Of a DNA stretch of 64,000 bases, positions 40,304-52,610 are shown in pieces. Position 1 is the stretch's first letter; each line of letters opens with the position of its first letter. The stretch comes from Gammaproteobacteria bacterium (lineage in GTDB: Bacteria > Pseudomonadota > Gammaproteobacteria > Coxiellales > Coxiellaceae). Under the pieces are notes generated by a model that ran no database searches, was not told where the DNA came from, and saw nothing but the letters and a program-made list of their open reading frames with translations. The stretch lies in contig JABDDR010000001.1 in NCBI GenBank assembly GCA_013287505.1, forward strand, positions 17,931 through 81,930. Reading direction: 5' to 3'. Position numbers and translations under genes: made by a program.

Positions 40304-41370
40304 ATGATGATGCGATACACGCTCACGCCACTGATTGGCGTGAGTCGCTGAAACAAAATCAGCGACGCACGACCTTCGTCATCATTTCTTTTATTTTTAT
40401 CTATGCATGCATCGGACTGATTATTGATTTATATATTTGCTCCGGCAGATATCCAACTATCCCATTATCACAATTATTTTATCAGCTCATCACATTTCAA
40501 TTATTCCCGCTTGCAACCATTGTCGCGAGCATAGTCGCATTCATTGCTATTTTTGTGACATTTGCGTTTCACGATAAATTTATGTTACTCGGTTCTGAGT
40601 ACCGCGAAATAACGCCAAAATCTGCGAAAAACGTGCAAGAACAAAAGCTGTATAATGTCGTTGAAGAAATGAAAGTCGCCGCGGGATTGCGATTTATGCC
40701 GAAAGTATTTTTAATCGATGCAGCCTATATGAATGCATTTGCTAGCGGCTACAGTGAAAAATCAGCGATGGTTGCAATCACGCAAGGGTTAATCGATAAA
40801 TTGGATCGTGATGAATTAACAGCAGTCATGGCGCATGAGCTCAGTCATGTGCGTCATATGGATATTAAACTCACATTAATGGCCTGCGTTTTAAGCAATA
40901 TTACATTAATTTTAGTCGATATCTTATTTTGGAATGCGCTTTTTTCAGGACGCGGGAATAATGATCGTGAAGGTTCTGATCGAAATGCATTATTTATTGT
41001 AATTATTGCATTGCGCTATTTACTGCCATTAGTAACTGTATTGCTAATGCTTTATTTAAGCCGCACCCGAGAATATATGGCAGATGCGGGATGTGTTGAA
41101 TTAATGAGAAGCAATGAACCATTGGCAAGAGCACTACAAAAAATTCAAGATGATCATGCGCAAAACAGCGAACAATATAATCAAGCGTATGCATCAACAC
41201 CGCATGAATCTATTCGTCGTCAGGCTTATATATTTGATCCTGTACAGGCCGGCATCGAAACCACAAAATCAGCCAGTGATTTTTTCTCAACACATCCAGA
41301 TATCAAAAAACGCCTGGCCGCGATAGGAATTAATACGCCCTCACCTTCGAATACCACCGCCAATAAATAA
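40300..41370 (+). CDS. M48-family zinc metalloprotease (HtpX-like)
   Basis: HELSHV zinc motif and a downstream EYMAD. Membrane segments are present. ATGA overlap with lemA. Confidence 0.8.
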   Translation: MNDDAIHAHATDWRESLKQNQRRTTFVIISFIFIYACIGLIIDLYICSGRYPTIPLSQLFYQLITFQLFPLATIVASIVAFIAIFVTFAFHDKFMLLGSEYREITPKSAKNVQEQKLYNVVEEMKVAAGLRFMPKVFLIDAAYMNAFASGYSEKSAMVAITQGLIDKLDRDELTAVMAHELSHVRHMDIKLTLMACVLSNITLILVDILFWNALFSGRGNNDREGSDRNALFIVIIALRYLLPLVTVLLMLYLSRTREYMADAGCVELMRSNEPLARALQKIQDDHAQNSEQYNQAYASTPHESIRRQAYIFDPVQAGIETTKSASDFFSTHPDIKKRLAAIGINTPSPSNTTANK

Positions 41371-42676
41371 TACCAGCGCCAATCAACATCCCAATATTTC
41401 CACCCATCTTAAATCCAATCACGCCTGTATGCAGCGGAAACGCAAACCAATAACCAATCGGCAAAACCAAACACCACATAACGATCAATCCAATTTGCAT
41501 TGGAAATTGCGTGTCTAATAATCCCCGCAATGCGCCTGATAACACATCACGCATCGACGATAAAACCAATGTAATCGCCATAATAATAAATAAAATATGA
41601 ATTAAATGCAGAATCGCCACATTTTTCGCAAGGTGAATGTTAATGTAAAATGACGCGAAAAAATTTGGCAGAAAAATAAATCCAGTGCTAAACAATAAAA
41701 CAAGACTCAACGCTAACATAACACTCGAATTGCCAATAGCACGCAACTGATGATAATCACCCGCACCCACCGACTGCCCCACCAAAATCCCCGCCGCTTC
41801 CGACATCGCAAAAATAGGCACAATTAATAAAAACATCCACTGTTGCGTCACTTGTGCTGCCGCGAGTGCATTGGTGCCAAGCCATCCAATCATCATCGTC
41901 ACCACAAAAAACGCGCCTAATTCGCCACCAAATTGCACGCTCATCGGCCAACCCACGCGAAACACTTTTCGCAAATAAATTAATCCCTGGTGTGATCGTG
42001 ATTTTAATAATTCGAATTTTTTAAAATCATTAATAACGTAACAGCATGTCATCAAAATCAAACAATCTATCCATGCTTGAATCGCAAAGCTCAAACCCAA
42101 TCCTTCAACACCTAAGGGCGGGATACCCAATTTCCCAAAAATTAAAACATACGCGATCGGAACAGCCATCACCAAACTGATCGCATTAATAATAATCACC
42201 AGCCGCTGCTTTAAAATGCCATAGCAAAATTGTTCAAGACACGACTGAAACATAATGGGAATGACACCCCACGTGAGCGCATGAAAATATTGACGCACAT
42301 AAACCAGCATTGTCGGCGATTCATGAAACAACGTTAAAAAATCATTGGCATACCAAAAGCAGACCATCATCAATAAACCAAGAAAAAAAGACAGCAACAT
42401 ACTCTGCTGTACCAACGCACCAATTTCATCGTATTTTTTCGCGCCAAATGATTGTCCGACGATAAAACTCAAAGAAAAAACAATAGAAATAAATATAAGC
42501 ATAGTGAAAGAGATGGTCGCATTAATTAACGCACACGACGCCAGCACTTCTCGTCCCAAATGAGCAACCATCATGGTAGAAATAAACCCGCTGAACATTT
42601 GCAAAAATCGCGAACCCGCCATCGGCAACGATAGATTCAGTACACGCTTCATTTGTGATAACGAAAACTGCTTCAT
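41330..42676 (-). CDS. MATE family efflux transporter
   Basis: 448 aa with 12 TM segments and a NorM-like N-terminus LPMAGSRFLQM. Confidence 0.85.
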   Translation of the reverse strand: MKQFSLSQMKRVLNLSLPMAGSRFLQMFSGFISTMMVAHLGREVLASCALINATISFTMLIFISIVFSLSFIVGQSFGAKKYDEIGALVQQSMLLSFFLGLLMMVCFWYANDFLTLFHESPTMLVYVRQYFHALTWGVIPIMFQSCLEQFCYGILKQRLVIIINAISLVMAVPIAYVLIFGKLGIPPLGVEGLGLSFAIQAWIDCLILMTCCYVINDFKKFELLKSRSHQGLIYLRKVFRVGWPMSVQFGGELGAFFVVTMMIGWLGTNALAAAQVTQQWMFLLIVPIFAMSEAAGILVGQSVGAGDYHQLRAIGNSSVMLALSLVLLFSTGFIFLPNFFASFYINIHLAKNVAILHLIHILFIIMAITLVLSSMRDVLSGALRGLLDTQFPMQIGLIVMWCLVLPIGYWFAFPLHTGVIGFKMGGNIGMLIGAGIIYWRWYSKVRAY

Positions 42677-42867: not shown

Positions 42868-42942
<75 letters not shown>

Positions 42943-43263
42943 GAATAAACTTTTAAATCAAGATGTTACAGATCACTTCACCTCACTTTATTTTTCCTAA
43001 ACAGCGCATTGTGTCATATTTGTGACATGAATTCGCGTAGCAGCTTCTTTTAAGTGATTACCTGTTTATTTTTAAAAGTAAAAACATAGACAGGGTGATT
43101 TCCCATTTGCTTTTTAAGAATGCTGATTGCATTAAATTCTGATTGGGGAATTATTCGGATTGCCAACACTGGTGATGCAATTATTTTGGGGACAGTGGTT
43201 GAACACAGGGCATATTATTGAAGTCATTTAACCGGTACACTGTCCATCAAAATATTTTTATTG

Positions 43264-43550
43264 TTATTTGATCGACTGCAGCACCGCCGAAAAATACTTC
43301 GGTGGCTCCGGGCGATCAAACCACGCTAAAACCAATGATATATTTAATGTTTTTGCATGATTTAGAATAATGAGCTCTTCATTTTCAACATAAGGTTTTG
43401 CAAATTCCTTGGCAAGCGTTGTATAGCCAATACCATTTGCAACCATCAAAGCTAAATTTTCCGTACGATTGACAAAATAACGACTGTGATTTGCCTCATC
43501 AAATAAATCATAATGCTTGAGATAATCAGCGGTGATAAAATCATTAAAAT
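43264..43550 (-). pseudogene. LysR-family regulator, C-terminal substrate-binding fragment
   Basis: Own translation in this frame gives ...DFITADYLKHYDLFDEANHSRYFVNRTENLALMVANGIGYTTLAKEFAKPYVENEELIIL...LAWFDRPEPPKYFSAVLQSIK. There is no HTH domain and no start. Confidence 0.6.
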
Positions 43551-43904
43551 AACAGTCATACCCTTTTTGATTTTCTGATCTGTGATCGGCGAATATCCTG
43601 ATTGTTTAATATCATCATTCGTAAAAAAAACATGTCGTTGCAAAAGATAAGGATTATGTTCGCTTTTTTTCAAAAATTTAGAAGTACTGTCCATAGGAAA
43701 ACGTTGATTAGCATTAAAATTAATCTGGATGTTATTGTAAGTATCAATAGCCGATAGTCCAATGTGAACATGATGGGTGATTTCTAATCGATGCAGTTTT
43801 TGCGAGACGGTATGCATGATAGCATTGAGTTTGTCTTCACCGGCAAATGCGTTACAAGATAAGAATAAAATGGTCAGTAAAAATAATTTATTAGGTAATT
43901 TCAT
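43551..43904 (-). pseudogene. Class A beta-lactamase, N-terminal fragment fused out of frame to the LysR fragment
   Basis: Signal peptide, the active-site context RFPMDSTSKF (SxxK) and YSPITDQKIKKGMTV. The similarity then stops, and no SDN or KTG motifs follow. Confidence 0.6.
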
Positions 43905-44406
43905 ATTGTTTCATTAACAATTGTAGTAATTTTTTAATACTGCTTTCTTTAGTTTCCAGCAACAACTTTTTAGTAAAATATTTTTCATAATGAGTCATTA
44001 CAGTGGGATCATCGTTTACGAAAGGCAAAAATCGTTTTTTTAATTCCCTTGCATGGCCATGATCTGATTTTCCCAAAACACGCAGCAGCATCGCTTCAAA
44101 ACAGGGTTCTGATGTCAATAGATGAATTGAACGTTTCTCAGCTTCTTTTTGAATCTTTGTATTCCAGCAGGTTGTATCGGTGTCGAATACAACGGCAACA
44201 ACATCATATTGTGCATTAAACGTTTGCCGGATAGTCCAATCAATCACATGTTTTGCACCCTTGCCTTGCGCATTTTTAATTTTGATTTGTCGACCATCAT
44301 TGCGCTGCGAAAATAATTGTTTCACATAATTTAAAAATGCAACTTCGCTATACCCCTCGCCTACGATTAATAATGTTTCTTTGGCTTTCCATGTCGACAT
44401 ATTCAT
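43891..44406 (-). CDS. RloB-like (Toprim-like) protein
   Basis: Three RloB-family motifs are present: LLIVGEGYSE, VVAVVFDTD and SEPCFEAMLL. It lies 5 nt downstream of the ATPase gene. Confidence 0.7.
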   Translation of the reverse strand: MNMSTWKAKETLLIVGEGYSEVAFLNYVKQLFSQRNDGRQIKIKNAQGKGAKHVIDWTIRQTFNAQYDVVAVVFDTDTTCWNTKIQKEAEKRSIHLLTSEPCFEAMLLRVLGKSDHGHARELKKRFLPFVNDDPTVMTHYEKYFTKKLLLETKESSIKKLLQLLMKQYEIT

Positions 44407-44411
44407 TCTTC

Positions 44412-45596
44412 TTATAAATTAGGCACGGCGCCATAGTGACCCGCCATATATTTTGCATAAAAATTATCATCACTGCGAATTCCCTCAACGGCATCTAATC
44501 GACATGCAGTACTTTCACACTGATCATTTTTTTGAACCAACATAATTTGAGATTTGTGAACCAGATTTAAAATTTCAGGAGAATGACAGGAAAATAATAA
44601 TTGTGCGTTATGAGGGTTAGTTTTTGGATTAGCAAATAAATCCAAAATAGGCTCAAGCATATGGGGATGCAAATCATTTTCAAGCTCATCGATAATCGCA
44701 ACACCACCGACTGCTAACGTCGACAAGAGTGGTGCAAGTAGAGAAAACGCTGCCTGAGTGCCGCTAGATTCTTCGGAAAAAGGGAGCGTATATTCTTTCT
44801 TATGAGACTTGTGCTTACCATACGCTTGCCAAATTTTTTGTGTGCTGTTTTCAAAATTGACGTCTTTTTCTATTAATTCAATGCCAGATAATCCCAAATC
44901 CCAAGTCGATAATAACTTTTCCATTTGCTGATAACGTATTTTGTTCTCTGCATAATATTTTGCAGCACCCCAGAAAGCTGTAAGCTCACCACCGTAGACA
45001 CGACCGCCATAAATGGACATATTGCTAATCACCGAAAGATGCGCCATGCGCTGCGCCAGCGGTATACCATATTGCGCTGCAGTGGAAATGAGCGAAGCAT
45101 TTTTTCGTACCTTCAATGCTTCTTGTAAATTAAATTCAAAATCCTGAAGTTTAATGGCATAACACTTTTTTGCATCATCCCATTCACGCACAAAAACATA
45201 ACCAAAACGTTCGCGTTTTTGATACAACGCTTCAAACAAAACTAGCTCTTTTGTACAGCGCAATTCATATCGCCACAATTTGCCATCAAGATCAAATAAT
45301 ATGCTAAATTCGGTTGGTTTATCATCAGCAGAAAAATGGGCTGAAATGGGAATCAATGACTCTGGCGAACTTTGAAAGGAAGCGTTAATAAACCAACCCA
45401 AAAATGCTAACGGCTTAAGTAATGCGGTTTTACCACCACCATTTGCACCAAGAACCGCCATTAACTTTGAAACTCGTTCACCGCTACTGGTTTCGCACAT
45501 CCAGTTGGTCAACTCCACCTTTTTGGTGACAGTCAGATCAACTTCTGTGCGTTCCTTAAAAGATTGGAAATTGGTGAAATCGTAGCTATAAATCAT
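44412..45596 (-). CDS. AAA_21/COG1106 ABC-type ATPase (OLD/AriA-like ATPase module)
   Basis: Walker A GANGGGKT, signature-like ESSGTQ, Walker B AIIDELENDLHP, FSCHSP, and the C-terminal GHYGAVP. ATG 45596 is preferred over the TTG at 45626. Confidence 0.8.
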   Translation of the reverse strand: MIYSYDFTNFQSFKERTEVDLTVTKKVELTNWMCETSSGERVSKLMAVLGANGGGKTALLKPLAFLGWFINASFQSSPESLIPISAHFSADDKPTEFSILFDLDGKLWRYELRCTKELVLFEALYQKRERFGYVFVREWDDAKKCYAIKLQDFEFNLQEALKVRKNASLISTAAQYGIPLAQRMAHLSVISNMSIYGGRVYGGELTAFWGAAKYYAENKIRYQQMEKLLSTWDLGLSGIELIEKDVNFENSTQKIWQAYGKHKSHKKEYTLPFSEESSGTQAAFSLLAPLLSTLAVGGVAIIDELENDLHPHMLEPILDLFANPKTNPHNAQLLFSCHSPEILNLVHKSQIMLVQKNDQCESTACRLDAVEGIRSDDNFYAKYMAGHYGAVPNL

Positions 45597-46152
45597 AGAA
45601 TTATCCGCTATTAATTTAAATAACAAACAGAATCATGTTAATAATAGCAGTTAATATAAAAATAGCTACTGTTTATCGTAAAAAACTCTTTTATCGGATC
45701 CTCGCTATAAAAAAATAACGCAAGGAATTGGGGTGTGTAGCCAAAACGTCACCAACTGTGACTGTTCTACCCTTGTGTTAGACGGTTGTAGACAGTTTTT
45801 CGTCCAATTTTGCATCACAAGTGTTTGATTTATAATGATCTATTGCCAATTTATGATCTAATACACAACTGTATTTGAAAATATCTTAATTTTTTGGCTG
45901 GCGATGCCAGACAAGCCTTCTGAGCCTTGCGTTTAAATTTTCTTTTAAAAATTACGGTCTTGAAATAAATGCAGCATCAAAAAATCATTCTATACAGCAA
46001 GCCAGGCGCATGCCTTTTGCGAAAAAAAGGCTCATAAGGCTTGTATGGTATCGACGCATTTATAAATATCCCAACAAAAATTTATTGTTTTATTTCATTT
46101 TTAAAAGAAAATAATCATTTTTAGAAACTTATTGCGCACTCTGATCAGGTCT

Positions 46153-46808: not shown

Positions 46809-47468
46809 TTATTTCCTTATTAATAAATGCAACGGTTTTTGAAATGCGCTATTGGGTGGTGAGCGTAAAAATGTGTTTCCCAAATCGGATGAGCAGACCT
46901 CAAGCTCGAGCTCTCCATTTTTCGCCATGAAGATACACCGAGATTCAGAAACCCAGTTTTGCTCATCTAAATAGAATCGATACAGATTTTTTTGTATTAC
47001 TTCCACGCTAGATACCCGAAAAACTTCGGTTATCTTACCAACTTTATACCCCTCAAAATGCTGGATGGCTTGCCATAATTTTTTAAATTGCGCCGAATTA
47101 AAATTTTTAATTAGTCGATCATCATAGACACCTGTTTTTTCACGCAAAAATTTTTCATATTTTTTTGTAGGGTTATCTTTTGGTGGCGCAAATTTATAAA
47201 TCATCTGGTGGAGCGTTTTATTTCCATAAGTTGTATGCAATGAGTCTAACAATGCATCATGACCGCACTGATCATTTGGAAAAATAGCAAAAAAGTGTGT
47301 TTTTCCAATTTGATCATGCCGTTTGCTGACTGTGTCCGCATATAAATTACCTAAGTTATGGTTCCTCCACGTCCAAGTACCACCTGAAAAACGAAAATGC
47401 CTTCCATCTGTATCTGTATAAATTACAGAATGCTTTACACCACCAACAGCTTTCACAAATTGTTTCAT
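46809..47468 (-). CDS. Hypothetical cytoplasmic protein (GGTWTWRNHNLGNLY motif)
   Basis: 219-aa ORF with no signal peptide, 11 nt upstream of the beta-propeller gene. I cannot assign a family. Confidence 0.5.
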   Translation of the reverse strand: MKQFVKAVGGVKHSVIYTDTDGRHFRFSGGTWTWRNHNLGNLYADTVSKRHDQIGKTHFFAIFPNDQCGHDALLDSLHTTYGNKTLHQMIYKFAPPKDNPTKKYEKFLREKTGVYDDRLIKNFNSAQFKKLWQAIQHFEGYKVGKITEVFRVSSVEVIQKNLYRFYLDEQNWVSESRCIFMAKNGELELEVCSSDLGNTFLRSPPNSAFQKPLHLLIRK

Positions 47469-47538: not shown

Positions 47539-47589
47539 ATCACAATAAATAACGATTGATATTTTTTTCAAAAAGCCAGGTCGCGATTA

Positions 47590-47764
47590 TTTTGTGCGCG
47601 CGCTCCCGCTGATGAATGCATTAATTTGTAGACATACCAAACATACCTAAAAATCTCTTTCCACGTTTTGCAAGGTTGTTCCCAATCGATTGGCGGTTGC
47701 AAAAAAATAAGTCTTGTCGTTCGTGTTGCGCGGATGAGAGGATGCGAATAAATTCTGTATTCAT
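47590..47764 (-). pseudogene. AbiEii-type nucleotidyltransferase toxin, 5' remnant (frameshift plus premature stop plus truncation)
   Basis: The ATG at 47764 is 7 nt after the AbiEi stop. Removing one T from the T7 run gives ...RQDLFFATANRLGTTLQNVERDF*VCLVCLQ, resembling the conserved AbiEii N-terminus (VEKDFWVC) with TAG in place of Trp. Confidence 0.45.
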
Positions 47765-47771
47765 GATGTTC

Positions 47772-48434
47772 CTAATGTTTTTTTTGAGCGCTTAAAAGTA
47801 ATTTTTGTATCCATTTTTGCATCCATATTGGCATAGCGTGCAGTCCATCTCGTAAGTCTTTGCAAATAATGTCACCCTGTTTTGTATCCTGTAAAATGCG
47901 GATCAATTTTTTTTGTATGCTTTTTTGTTCCGCTTCTGAAAGCCCTTTGATTGCGTCATGCAGCCAATAAAGTGCTTGCACGATTCGCATACTGGGGCGT
48001 CCTGCCCAATATAGTTTGCCGGGGGTGGTTAATTTAAATTGAATGGTGAGATTTCCCAATTTTATTGGACGCAAGCGACCATCTGTATGTACCACGACTT
48101 TCCCGAGTACTGCATGCGTTAACCCCAAATCATTCGCAGCAGTTAGTCCATCCATTAATATTCGTATTGAATCACGACGAGCAATGGCGTCGATTACTTT
48201 TTGATAACTTGGTACAGAAAGTTGATCAGTGAGCGTATTGATTTTCGGTTGATCATAAAGCCCGCGACTAATGCGGCGTAATTCATGATGGGTGGTGAGT
48301 CGTTGTAGTGCTTTATCTATTGCATCACGCGTACCCATATCCAGAAAATCTGTCGGAGTCCATACATCCCCGTGATCAGCCTTATGAATGCGTTGCATGA
48401 TAAGTGATTTCAGTGTGGTAGTCATAGCAAACAT
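47772..48434 (-). CDS. AbiEi-family (DUF6088-like) type IV antitoxin/transcriptional regulator
   Basis: WTPTDFLDMGTRDAIDKALQRLTTHHELRRISRGLYD wHTH pattern typical of AbiEi/DUF6088 proteins. Confidence 0.6.
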   Translation of the reverse strand: MFAMTTTLKSLIMQRIHKADHGDVWTPTDFLDMGTRDAIDKALQRLTTHHELRRISRGLYDQPKINTLTDQLSVPSYQKVIDAIARRDSIRILMDGLTAANDLGLTHAVLGKVVVHTDGRLRPIKLGNLTIQFKLTTPGKLYWAGRPSMRIVQALYWLHDAIKGLSEAEQKSIQKKLIRILQDTKQGDIICKDLRDGLHAMPIWMQKWIQKLLLSAQKKH

Positions 48435-48687
48435 GCTTATTATTGTCTTAAATTAGTATACACTTTTCGGACAAAAATACCAAGTTTTTATCGAGGATCG
48501 CTTGATGGAAAATCAGTGTTGCTCGATCCGATCTTTTTAATTGCACTTACTGCTGCTTATCGCACTGTGTCATTATTGTGACGTATTTAGAGATATCTAA
48601 CACTGATTGTGACTGTGATAGACTGTTTTTCACCTTGAATTGCATCGCAAGGCTTTGATTTTTCGTACTTTATACCATGGCGATAGC

Positions 48688-48741
48688 GACTGTTAATCAC
48701 TTGGTCGCAGGTATCGAGTCCGGCCCGGGGAGCCGGAATAA
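48688..48741 (+). repeat. Partial copy of the tRNA-Asn 3' half (att-type direct repeat)
   Basis: gactgttaatcacttggtcgcaggtatcgagtccggcccggggagccggaataa compared with 42896-42948 shows two substitutions and one 1-nt insertion. The match extends 6 nt past the tRNA end. Confidence 0.85.
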
Positions 48742-48849
48742 TCTTTTGTTTTGCGTGAAAATCATAACGCTCATCATTAATAAAATTATCAGCACATTAC
48801 ATGGTGTCGCCAGGTATAATAATCATTAACAAATCAATAGGCATGGTCT

Positions 48850-50217
48850 ATGCGGTATATCCCGCTACGAAAAAATGATTTATATCCACTATTAAAATTA
48901 GCAATGCCGCTCGCGCTGATGGGTATTATTGGCGGTTCTGTGGGTTTTTTTCAAACGTTATTTTTAGCGCATATCAATCATGAAACGCTTGCTGCAGGCG
49001 CTTTGGTCAGTTATTTATATGGCACATTTGCCGTTATATTGTTTGGTACGTTAAGCGCCATCAATGTTTTAATTTCTCATAAACATGGCGCACAAGATAA
49101 AATTGGCGTAGCGCATGTGATACGCGATGGATTATTTCTAGCGATACTTCTGACGGTTCCATCATTTTTATTATTTTGGAATATGGCACCTATTTTTCTT
49201 CTATTTGGGCAGAAACCTTCGGTGGTTCTACTGGCAAAATCATATTTGCATGCATTGTCCTGGGGGCTATTGCCCGATTTAATTACATTTGCACTTTTCG
49301 AATTTTTAATAGGATTGGGTAAAACACGGCTTCTTACGTTTTTTACAGTGTTCTGTGTGTCACTGATTATTCTATTTAGTTATATTTTAATTTTTGGGAA
49401 ATTTGGATTCCCGGCTTTAGGTATCGCAGGTGCAGGTTGGGGGATGACAATCGCTTTTTGGATTCTAGCAATAGCACTTGTCATTTTTCTTTTAACACAT
49501 AAAGAATATAAAAAATACTTCCACCGCATTTTTAATCGAAAAAAACCCACTTTTTTACGTGAACTATTGCGTGTTGGCGTTCCAATGGGAGCGATGTATT
49601 TTTTTGAAGTGGGATTTTTCTTTGCGCTTACTTTAGTGATGGGGTCATTTAACAGCGAATTATTAGCAGCTAATCAAATTGTAATGCAATATTTAGGCAC
49701 TTTAATGGGTGTTGTTTTTTCTATTGCGCAAGCTGTTACAGTCCGCATGGGACATTTACTCGGAGCCAAAGAAATAAATTCAGCAAAACAAGCTGGGTAC
49801 GCAGGAATTTATTTATCAGTATTTTTCATGGGGATCATTGCAATTTGTTATTGGGTATTGCCATCCTTGCTCATATCAGTCGATTTTAATATTCATAGTC
49901 CAAATAATATCGCGATCGTCAGTGATATAAAAAAATTATTTATGATTGCTGCCGTTTTTCAAATTTTTGAAGCGATCCGATTGTCATTGTTTGGCGCATT
50001 GCGCGCATTAAAAGATACTAATTTTACACTAATGATATCCATCATTAGTTTTTGGTTTCTTGCGCTGCCAGTTGGATACCTACTCGCTACCTATTTTCAT
50101 TTAAGTGGTGAAGGACTTTGGTGGGGTATGGTGATAGGCGCTAGTTTTAGTGTTTGTTTGTTATTTCGGCGGTTTCAAGAACGTGTCAGGCAAGAGTTAT
50201 TTGACTTATTTCGATAA
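48850..50217 (+). CDS. MATE family efflux transporter (paralogue of 41330-42676)
   Basis: 455 aa with 12 TM segments, collinear with the other MATE protein. Confidence 0.85.
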   Translation: MRYIPLRKNDLYPLLKLAMPLALMGIIGGSVGFFQTLFLAHINHETLAAGALVSYLYGTFAVILFGTLSAINVLISHKHGAQDKIGVAHVIRDGLFLAILLTVPSFLLFWNMAPIFLLFGQKPSVVLLAKSYLHALSWGLLPDLITFALFEFLIGLGKTRLLTFFTVFCVSLIILFSYILIFGKFGFPALGIAGAGWGMTIAFWILAIALVIFLLTHKEYKKYFHRIFNRKKPTFLRELLRVGVPMGAMYFFEVGFFFALTLVMGSFNSELLAANQIVMQYLGTLMGVVFSIAQAVTVRMGHLLGAKEINSAKQAGYAGIYLSVFFMGIIAICYWVLPSLLISVDFNIHSPNNIAIVSDIKKLFMIAAVFQIFEAIRLSLFGALRALKDTNFTLMISIISFWFLALPVGYLLATYFHLSGEGLWWGMVIGASFSVCLLFRRFQERVRQELFDLFR

Positions 50218-50837: not shown

Positions 50838-50912
50838 CCTGCCTCCTTAAATATACGGTAGAGCCAACTACCTATAATCGTGATAGATTGTCGCTTATCA
50901 GAAATTAGAGCG

Positions 50913-52610
50913 ATGGTAAAAACAGCTATGCAGCAAAAAGAAGCATTTGATTTATTAAAAATGGGGAAAAATATTTTTCTCACGGGTGCAGCAGGTTCTG
51001 GTAAAACGTATTTATTAAATCAATATATTCGTTATCTCAAAGAAAATAATGTCGGCGTTGCTGTTACTGCATCAACAGGTATTGCTGCAACGCATCTACA
51101 AGGATCAACATTGCATTCCTGGTCAGGAATAGGTGTAAAAGATAAGCTGGATCAGAATGATTTAGAAAAATTACTCAAGACCGATCGCATCAAACGTAAT
51201 TACAAAAAAACAAAAGTGTTGATCATCGATGAAATATCCATGTTACACAAACATCAGTTAGATATGGTAAATACAATTGCGCGTTATATTTTAAATTCAG
51301 ACAAAGCATTTGGTGGCATGCAAATTATTTTATGTGGTGATTTTTTTCAGCTGCCACCCGTATCCTCTGGTTTTTCCGCAAAAGAAATACAATTTGCTTT
51401 TGAAGCACAAGCGTGGATCGATGCTGAGTTTTATGTGTGTTATTTGCATGAACAACACCGTCAAGGCAATGATCCACTGCTTGCGATTTTAAATGATATA
51501 CGCAGTGGGTCAGCAGGAGAGCATACCAAAGTCCCTTTGCGTACCCGTTACAAAAAAGAGCCTATTGGTCCAACCAAAGCAACCCGATTATATTCGCGCA
51601 ATATCAATGTGGATGTGATAAATGACCAGGAACTCACAAGCCTTAAGGGTAAAGAAAAAATATTTAAAATGGTAACAGATGGATTCAGCACATTGGTAGA
51701 AAGTCTCAAAAAGAGCTGTCTCGCCTTAGAACAATTAAAATTAAAAATTGGCGCTGAAGTCATGTTTATAAAAAATGATGTGTCAGGAAAATATGTCAAT
51801 GGTACGCAATGTATTGTTGTAGATTTTGATAAAAATGAAGGCTGGCCTGTTGTTAAAACACATGCTGGCGAGATTATTACCGCCTTTCCAGAAGAATGGA
51901 CGTATGAAGAAAATGACATTGTGCGCGCAACACTAATACAAGTGCCACTGCGACTTGCTTGGGCGATTACTATTCACAAGAGTCAAGGCATGACACTGGA
52001 CGCAGCGGAAATCGATTTAGGCGATGCTTTTGAACCAGGTATGGGATACGTTGCGTTATCACGAGTGCGCAGTTTAAGTGGTTTAAAACTGATGAATTTA
52101 AATGAAATGGCATTAAAAGTAAATTCTAAAATTCTTGAGCAAGATGACGTCTTTAAAAATAATTCGATGACTCATGTAAATTATTTAAAAACATTATCTG
52201 AAAAAGAAAAAATTGAACATCAACAAAAAATATTAACAGAACGTTTTGATGGCAACAAAACAAAATCCATTGTGAAGAAAAAAAATATCAGCGTGAAAAA
52301 AACCAAAATTCCAACGCATACAACAACATTAGAAATGCTAAAAGAAAATTTATCCATTGCATCAATTGCTGAAAAACGGGAATTAACTATTGGCACCGTC
52401 ATCAACCATATAGAAAAGTTGAAAGGCTTAAAACAGATTGATCATGCAATTATTGAAAATCTAAAAAATGCGATATCAAAAAATGACTTTGATATTATTT
52501 TTACTGCATTAGAAAAATCAGATGATGGTGGGTTAAAGTCGATTTACGAAAAATTTGAGGGGAAATATTCCTATGATTTTATTAAAATCGTCAGATTGTT
52601 TGTGCGCTAG
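50913..52610 (+). CDS. PIF1/RecD-family ATP-dependent DNA helicase with C-terminal HTH region
   Basis: Walker A GAAGSGKT, Walker B VLIIDEISML, LCGDFFQLPPV and ITIHKSQGMT. The start is uncertain (50880 GTG, 50913 or 50928 ATG). Confidence 0.85.
   Translation: MVKTAMQQKEAFDLLKMGKNIFLTGAAGSGKTYLLNQYIRYLKENNVGVAVTASTGIAATHLQGSTLHSWSGIGVKDKLDQNDLEKLLKTDRIKRNYKKTKVLIIDEISMLHKHQLDMVNTIARYILNSDKAFGGMQIILCGDFFQLPPVSSGFSAKEIQFAFEAQAWIDAEFYVCYLHEQHRQGNDPLLAILNDIRSGSAGEHTKVPLRTRYKKEPIGPTKATRLYSRNINVDVINDQELTSLKGKEKIFKMVTDGFSTLVESLKKSCLALEQLKLKIGAEVMFIKNDVSGKYVNGTQCIVVDFDKNEGWPVVKTHAGEIITAFPEEWTYEENDIVRATLIQVPLRLAWAITIHKSQGMTLDAAEIDLGDAFEPGMGYVALSRVRSLSGLKLMNLNEMALKVNSKILEQDDVFKNNSMTHVNYLKTLSEKEKIEHQQKILTERFDGNKTKSIVKKKNISVKKTKIPTHTTTLEMLKENLSIASIAEKRELTIGTVINHIEKLKGLKQIDHAIIENLKNAISKNDFDIIFTALEKSDDGGLKSIYEKFEGKYSYDFIKIVRLFVR

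Follow-up and report, generated by a model that had tools for sequence, protein, structure and literature searches.

We analysed a 64,000-nucleotide (nt) window of a Gammaproteobacteria bacterium genome (Coxiellales; Coxiellaceae; assembly GCA_013287505.1, contig JABDDR010000001.1, positions 17,931-81,930 of the forward strand) and found in it an adjoining pair of genes that forms, with a probability we put at roughly 0.8, an intact AbiL-type (AbiLi/AbiLii, equivalent to RloA/RloB-type) two-gene anti-phage abortive-infection (Abi) cassette on a decayed tRNA-Asn islet. All coordinates below are those of the window. The abiLi-like gene (44412-45596, minus strand) encodes a 394-amino-acid (aa) ABC-type ATPase (AAA_21/AAA_15, Rad50/SMC-like), the predicted sensor or regulator, and the abiLii-like gene (43891-44406, minus strand) encodes a 171-aa, RloB-family, Toprim-like protein, the predicted nuclease effector. 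Phage defence is the best reading of the role of the pair.

Both genes are intact and constitute one operon on the minus strand, with the ABC ATPase gene upstream and the RloB/Toprim-like gene second. The open reading frame (ORF) list and the sequence agree on the arrangement described in an earlier, sequence-only reading of this DNA, in which the two genes lie 5 nt apart: the TAA stop codon of the ATPase gene occupies 44412-44414, the ATG of the RloB gene starts at 44406, and the spacer between them runs from 44407 to 44411 on the minus strand. Translation of the two genes is probably coupled. An alternative ATG at 44400 would shorten the RloB protein to 169 aa and widen the spacer to 11 nt; this start agrees with database entry P0001, likewise 169 aa long, and with the starts of homologues. 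Upstream of the ATPase gene, a TTG at 45626 would lengthen the protein by 10 residues to 404 aa, but the ATG, not the TTG, is where homologues start (consensus MLHSYAFSNFQSF). Two sigma-70-like promoter matches lie 5' of the ATPase start (45613-45682, minus strand), each with 9 of 12 consensus matches, a consensus-level resemblance that is frequent by chance in this AT-rich region. The two ORFs themselves are not chance ORFs, because full-length homologues at 46-92% identity exist for both. For the small protein, 131 homologues were detectable, about 165 aa in length and up to 81% identical; for the ATPase there were 2759, with identity reaching 92%, and the nearest relatives in each case came from other samples.

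The PADLOC library was decisive for the name of the pair. The ATPase matched the AbiLi model PDLC02335 at 2.1e-72 (241.9 bits), the best of 115 PADLOC matches, with AriA (1e-36), HEC-01A and PtuA following far behind. The small protein matched two AbiLii models, PDLC02338 at 2.4e-11 and PDLC02337 at 2.6e-9, and since the AbiLi and AbiLii models both match, the pair is of AbiL type. The gene layout in the PADLOC definition of AbiL, adjacent and co-oriented with the ATPase upstream, is the one found here across the 5-nt spacer. In Pfam, the ATPase covered the whole AAA_21 profile (2.2e-29, positions 1-304 of 304, above the curated cut-off) and also matched AAA_15; the small protein matched RloB (PF13707; 1.4e-11) with 45.4 bits against a gathering threshold of 31.5, and the same match was returned by 35 of 35 sampled homologues. 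A GajA model of PADLOC also matched the small protein, at its Toprim region (3e-4). NCBIfam held no specific model for the pair and returned only partial matches, to MAD3 and PtuA. From these profiles, we consider assignment of the family to AbiL highly probable.

AbiL, validated in Lactococcus lactis, is cited (PMC13064643, PMC3985639) as a two-gene lactococcal Abi system, abiLi and abiLii, described by Deng et al. 1999, and the listing in PMC13064643 has it act once the phage has been transcribed. Pfam, PADLOC and the conservation of the pair bear out the sequence-only reading in its central proposal, a split module of an ABC ATPase and an RloB/Toprim-like protein, including the placement of the small protein in the RloB family. 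That reading had also held the pairing of an ATPase with RloB to be uncharacterised, which PADLOC and the literature correct, as the pairing is AbiL, a known two-gene Abi system. In annotation, the label 'AbiL-type defence system' suits the locus and should replace 'ATP-binding protein' beside 'RloB domain-containing protein'.

The partnership of the two genes is conserved across genomes. By scanning one genome per species, we obtained 80 loci, mostly from Beta- and Gammaproteobacteria, with ATPases 50-63% identical to the one described here. An RloB homologue follows the ATPase on the same strand in 78 of the 80, its alignment starting 0-53 nt past the ATPase match. Of the two exceptions, one is cut by the end of its contig and the other has had its RloB gene replaced: in an Aquabacterium metagenome-assembled genome (MAG; locus L073, 7192-8100), unrelated short ORFs follow the ATPase homologue in place of RloB, and, of 78 loci with enough downstream sequence, this one alone is without the partner. 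The flanks are not conserved, with 148 Pfam families over 138 neighbouring ORFs and none in more than three loci. Because the flanks vary in this way across the 80 loci, the pair is a self-contained cassette; neither a conserved third gene nor a fixed restriction-modification (R-M) context was found among them.

The pair moves as a unit among unrelated genomic contexts, plasmids and a phage. The Vibrio alginolyticus plasmid pMBL287 carries the same pair adjoining an IS481 transposase, and the Stenotrophomonas phage vB_SmeS_BUCT708 (locus L083, 2609-4260) carries the pair, with a 40%-identical ATPase, as a divergently oriented insert that runs against its neighbours and adjoins an MT-A70 methyltransferase. 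A Legionellales MAG (JAHCLG010000040; locus L081, 3676-3768) has a 66%-identical ATPase alone between folP and ftsH, where the ATPase gene is intact but of RloB only 32 aa from the 3' end remain behind it, the nuclease gene having been deleted.

The predicted ATP-binding and hydrolysis motifs of the ATPase are all conserved, as scored over 81 sequences at 35-66% identity. The N-terminal FTNFQSF (residues 7-13) is followed by the Walker A motif GANGGGKT (residues 50-57; 45426-45449, minus strand, as are all motifs of both proteins), with conserved residues G50, N52, G55, K56 and T57. Further downstream are the ABC signature-like ESSGTQ (residues 276-281; 44754-44771), with E276, S277, G279 and T280 conserved; the Walker B motif VAIIDE with the D-loop region ENDLHP (residues 299-311; 44664-44702), containing conserved D303 and E304; and the H-loop FSCHSP (residues 335-340; 44577-44594) with conserved H338. 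The residues named for Walker A and the signature, D303, E304, E306-P311 and H338 are at least 97% conserved, as is the Q-loop-like Q175. The C-terminal tail DDNFYAKYMAGHYGAVP (residues 376-392; 44421-44471), which contains the C-terminal GHYGAVP, is almost invariant: 15 of the 17 positions of DDNFYAKYMAGxYGAVP are at least 97% conserved in the 81 ATPases, and the tail is recognisable even at 35-40% identity, as DNLYxKYIxGALGxxP. It falls outside the AAA_21 profile, and residues 386-394 have a predicted local distance difference test (pLDDT) score below 50, so that the end is predicted to be disordered. The AlphaFold2 (AF2) model of the whole ATPase (pLDDT 81) comprises an ABC head, a beta-rich lobe and an inserted region of short helices. 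By Foldseek, its top matches were Septu/retron PtuA and Rad50/SMC heads (E ~1e-11), and a sequence search of the PDB matched only the C-terminal ABC region shared by PtuA and OLD.

As for the RloB protein, all 35 family members scored keep the putative Toprim glutamate and the acidic residues of the DxD motif. The first Toprim-like motif, LLIVGEGYSE (residues 12-21; 44344-44373), contains the invariant E17 and near-invariant E21; the DxD motif, VVAVVFDTD (residues 69-77; 44176-44202), contains the invariant D75 and D77; and in the third RloB motif, SEPCFEAMLL (residues 99-108; 44083-44112), S99, P101, C102 and E104 are near-invariant. All motifs listed in the sequence-only reading were located exactly, at the expected residues of both proteins. 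The AF2 model of RloB (pLDDT 90) has a four-stranded beta/alpha core, with strands at residues 10-16, 39-45, 69-75 and 94-99 and helices between them, followed by a helical C-terminal part. A conserved glutamate after strand 1 and DxD after strand 3 of such a core are the layout of a Toprim domain, and the best PDB fold matches of the model were OLD nucleases (6p74, 6nk8, 6njx and 6njv). Ernits et al. 2023 linked RloB, AbiLii and OLD_TOPRIM, relating RloB to OLD_TOPRIM by HHpred (PMC10440598), and AbiL is counted among the ABC + TOPRIM systems (PMC11464382). Between 2023 and 2026, several papers grouped AbiL and its RloB domain with PARIS as systems of this type.

Several observations weigh against the assignment to an active, Toprim-based AbiL cassette. 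The Foldseek matches to OLD nucleases are weak (E 0.013-0.04, template modelling score 0.38-0.46), the Pfam OLD-like_TOPRIM match reaches 15.3 bits and lies below its cut-off of 23.2, and aligning the RloB family to P2 Old with hhalign gave no significant match (E 0.21), even if the motifs fall in register there, EGYSE on Old EGKTE (398-402), GKGA on GKGS and DTD on DCD. A search of PDB sequences with the RloB profile found no nuclease and gave only chance matches to insect chemosensory proteins; a search with the single RloB sequence gave nothing, and no solved AbiL-like protein was found in PDB sequence searches with either protein. The relation to the Lactococcus prototype is drawn here solely through the PADLOC hidden Markov models (HMMs). 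Deep et al. call AbiL structurally distinct from PARIS and place AbiL, a Nostoc pair and Campylobacter RloAB among ATPase + Toprim systems of unknown mechanism (PMC10802264). Dy et al. 2014 observed toxicity of Fusobacterium nucleatum AbiLii in E. coli, but reported that Fusobacterium AbiLi in trans failed to neutralise it and that the Lactococcus AbiL proteins are not toxic in E. coli (PMC3985639). Given this failure in trans and the lactococcal non-toxicity, simple sequestration of the PARIS kind is not established for AbiL; the trans-complementation result and the reported structural differences from PARIS are also the main cautions on the mechanism proposed below. Lastly, the islet is decaying, with gene fragments and the loss of AbiEii, so that expression of the pair here cannot be taken for granted.

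The pair might instead be a toxin-antitoxin or addiction module that stabilises its carrier islet, plasmid or prophage, with RloB as toxin, the ATPase as antitoxin and no dedicated role in phage defence. Its presence on mobile elements (the plasmid and the phage) and on a small islet would suit such a module, as would the Legionellales MAG, where a nuclease cut to a 32-aa remnant beside an intact ATPase fits toxin loss. The NetFlax network, moreover, includes toxin-antitoxin pairs made up of an AAA and a TOPRIM_OLD protein, and Ernits et al. 2023 tested pairs of this kind within their toxin-antitoxin network (PMC10440598). We nevertheless regard an addiction module as unlikely, in that the prototype AbiL confers phage resistance and Fusobacterium AbiLi was no antitoxin in trans; toxin-antitoxin function and abortive infection are in any case compatible, PARIS being both.

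The islet that carries the pair lies between two MatE genes (41330-42676 and 48850-50217) and is bounded by a direct repeat of about 60 nt, which comprises the 3' part of tRNA-Asn and about 12 nt beyond it. The left copy (42894-42954) overlaps the tRNA-Asn gene (42868-42942), the two together spanning 42868-42954 on the plus strand by ARAGORN and repeat alignment. The right copy, a partial tRNA-Asn 3' part at the far end of the islet (48686-48747, plus strand), is 94-96% identical, and ARAGORN calls no tRNA gene at this position. The repetition of the tRNA-Asn 3' part shows that the tRNA-Asn island proposed earlier is real, with a length of about 5.8 kb. No integrase was found on the islet, and a search of it with Rfam found the tRNA as the sole known RNA. 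A third tRNA-like repeat at 45758-45775, which would have split the islet in two, was rejected when alignment showed a chance match.

Besides the AbiL pair, the islet holds a LysR C-terminal fragment, an ORF without a family, a PD40-repeat protein, a 219-aa ORF and AbiEi. The AbiEi-type gene (DUF6088; 47772-48434, minus strand; PADLOC AbiEi 6e-91) is intact and full length, contrary to its earlier description as an AbiE remnant. No AbiEii ORF adjoins it, the short ORFs at 47568-47764 having no Pfam or PADLOC match, and AbiEi here is an orphan antitoxin or regulator. As for the defence-island context, the islet does combine two defence-type elements with a tRNA gene, but it is small and decayed and not a large defence island. 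The 61-aa ORF at 43264-43449 (minus strand) weakly matches the LysR substrate-binding domain at its C-terminal end (positions 145-204 of the 209 in the profile, E 0.02) and is probably a gene fragment. Next to it is a 150-aa ORF (43452-43904, minus strand), which begins with an ATG 14 nt ahead of the RloB stop codon and overlaps the RloB end; it belongs to no Pfam or PADLOC family and has a signal-peptide-like N-terminus and an S-T-S-K stretch. The final RloB residues (…KQYEIT) are not those of the homologue consensus, which looks as though the cassette ended against this ORF.

On the other side of the pair, 556 nt separate the ATPase gene from the PD40-repeat gene, and this stretch contains a 27-nt inverted repeat (45902-45928 and 46027-46053) that is 89% complementary. 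The minus-strand RNA fold of this region has a z-score of -3.1 and no Rfam match, and the repeat may be the terminator region of the upstream gene or a small mobile repeat. The 219-aa ORF (46809-47468, minus strand) gave no significant Pfam or PADLOC match. A peroxiredoxin gene and then a PIF1-like helicase (50880-52610, plus strand), whose C-terminal domain is HTH_40, lie immediately beyond the islet; the helicase has weak PADLOC matches to RecD-like candidate systems.

Surroundings as degraded as these, with the weak LysR fragment, AbiEi without AbiEii and no integrase, could belong to genes that are intact yet no longer functional, carried as silent passengers of a decaying islet; the overlap of the RloB ORF end with the start of the next ORF and promoter matches at consensus level only point the same way. 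Against this, both ORFs are full length relative to their homologues and keep every conserved catalytic residue, and other samples contain homologues with as much as 92% identity to the ATPase and 81% to RloB, which leaves a silent passenger very unlikely. That the pair serves a type I R-M locus as an accessory of RloAB type, acting with Hsd proteins as in Campylobacter, is improbable in the extreme, for although the RloB family was named from genes within Campylobacter type I R-M loci (PMC10440598, PMC10802264) and ResIII, DEAD or MmeI-type neighbours occur at a few homologous loci (3 of 138 each), no hsd or other R-M gene lies on or beside the islet and the neighbours are not conserved across the 80 loci.

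For an AbiL-type abortive-infection cassette, a course of action can be proposed by analogy with PARIS, which works by sequestration and then release (PMC13064643; PMC12409363), and with P2 Old, a tRNase (bioRxiv 10.64898/2026.07.10.737580), together with the published toxicity of AbiLii homologues. An oligomer of the ATPase would bind the small nuclease and hold it inactive, until the ATPase sensed a phage-derived cue and the nuclease was released or activated in an ATP-dependent way. Once freed or activated, it would cut nucleic acid, most likely tRNA by analogy with AriB and Old, with DNA possible as for GajA; translation or replication would halt and the infection would be aborted. We give sequestration and release of the PARIS kind about an even chance, and reviews up to 2026 ask for more study of whether AbiL operates like PARIS (PMC13064643, PMC10802264).

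More tentatively, and we think it somewhat doubtful, the compact clade to which the pair belongs, with its 394-aa ATPase, short helical insert and Toprim protein of about 165 aa, could work unlike PARIS. The conserved ATPase tail with its predicted disorder may hold or gate the nuclease, and the system might also differ from AriA/AriB in its trigger, or in a target that could be DNA or a different RNA. If this were true, solving the non-PARIS working would give a first mechanism for the whole AbiL/RloAB branch, an ABC-ATPase + Toprim branch for which no structure or mechanism turned up. With many homologues and AF2 models at pLDDT 90 (RloB) and 81 (ATPase), the compact proteobacterial clade would be a convenient model.

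Among known systems, Septu and retron PtuA-PtuB provide the solved structures nearest to the ATPase fold (8eea, 8sux and 9n69; E ~1e-11), and many PtuA HMMs match the C-terminal part of the ATPase. The likeness is limited to the ABC core, and the Septu partner is an HNH nuclease where the partner here is the Toprim-like RloB. The OLD family (P2 Old, class 1/2 OLD, GajA and the retron Eco8 effector) employs the same two chemistries; OLD C-terminal regions are the best PDB matches of the RloB model, and the E/GKG/DxD register fits Old 398-456. In OLD proteins, however, ATPase and Toprim are fused in one polypeptide, whereas two separate ORFs encode them here, and the likeness of RloB to the OLD Toprim falls below significance in Pfam, Foldseek and hhalign. 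There is no GajB/UvrD helicase or retron partner near the pair, the nearest helicase being the PIF1-like one outside the islet. Membership of OLD class 1/2 and of Gabija was rejected on these grounds, with no fusion and no helicase on the islet.

Campylobacter RloA/RloB shares the pairing of an ATPase with a small protein of the same Pfam family, RloB. The Campylobacter genes reside in type I R-M loci, whereas the pair described here is not inside an hsd operon; with no hsd or R-M domains in the flanking ORFs and with flanks that vary across loci, membership of RloAB within type I R-M was rejected.

PARIS, too, is a split ABC ATPase and Toprim-type effector encoded in a two-gene operon on mobile elements, and is the best available mechanistic model, in which the nuclease stays bound to the sensor ATPase until a trigger frees it. 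Its effector is AriB, a DUF4435 Toprim tRNase, whereas the effector here is RloB, and no AriB/DUF4435 match to the small protein was found in Pfam or PADLOC at E values up to 1. The AriA models score 125 and 45 bits on the ATPase against 242 for AbiLi; AriA is a protein of 53-55 kDa (PMC11464382), compared with the smaller 394-aa ATPase here, whose insert consists of short helices, and PARIS structures were absent from the top 50 fold matches of the ATPase model. The label of PARIS-like in the sequence-only reading does not extend to membership, which we rejected for want of an AriB/DUF4435 effector and for an ATPase best matched by AbiLi rather than AriA.

Closest to the pair is AbiL of Lactococcus lactis as PADLOC models it, of which this locus is an ordinary further member that adds no new principle. 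The abiLI annotation on a Klebsiella plasmid belongs to a gene whose alignment covers just the C-terminal third of the ATPase, at 33% identity, and the pair described here belongs to a proteobacterial clade, so that it is probably distant from the Gram-positive prototype. With the L. lactis system it nonetheless shares two co-oriented genes, the ATPase first and the RloB/Toprim-like protein second, in a stand-alone cassette on a mobile element.

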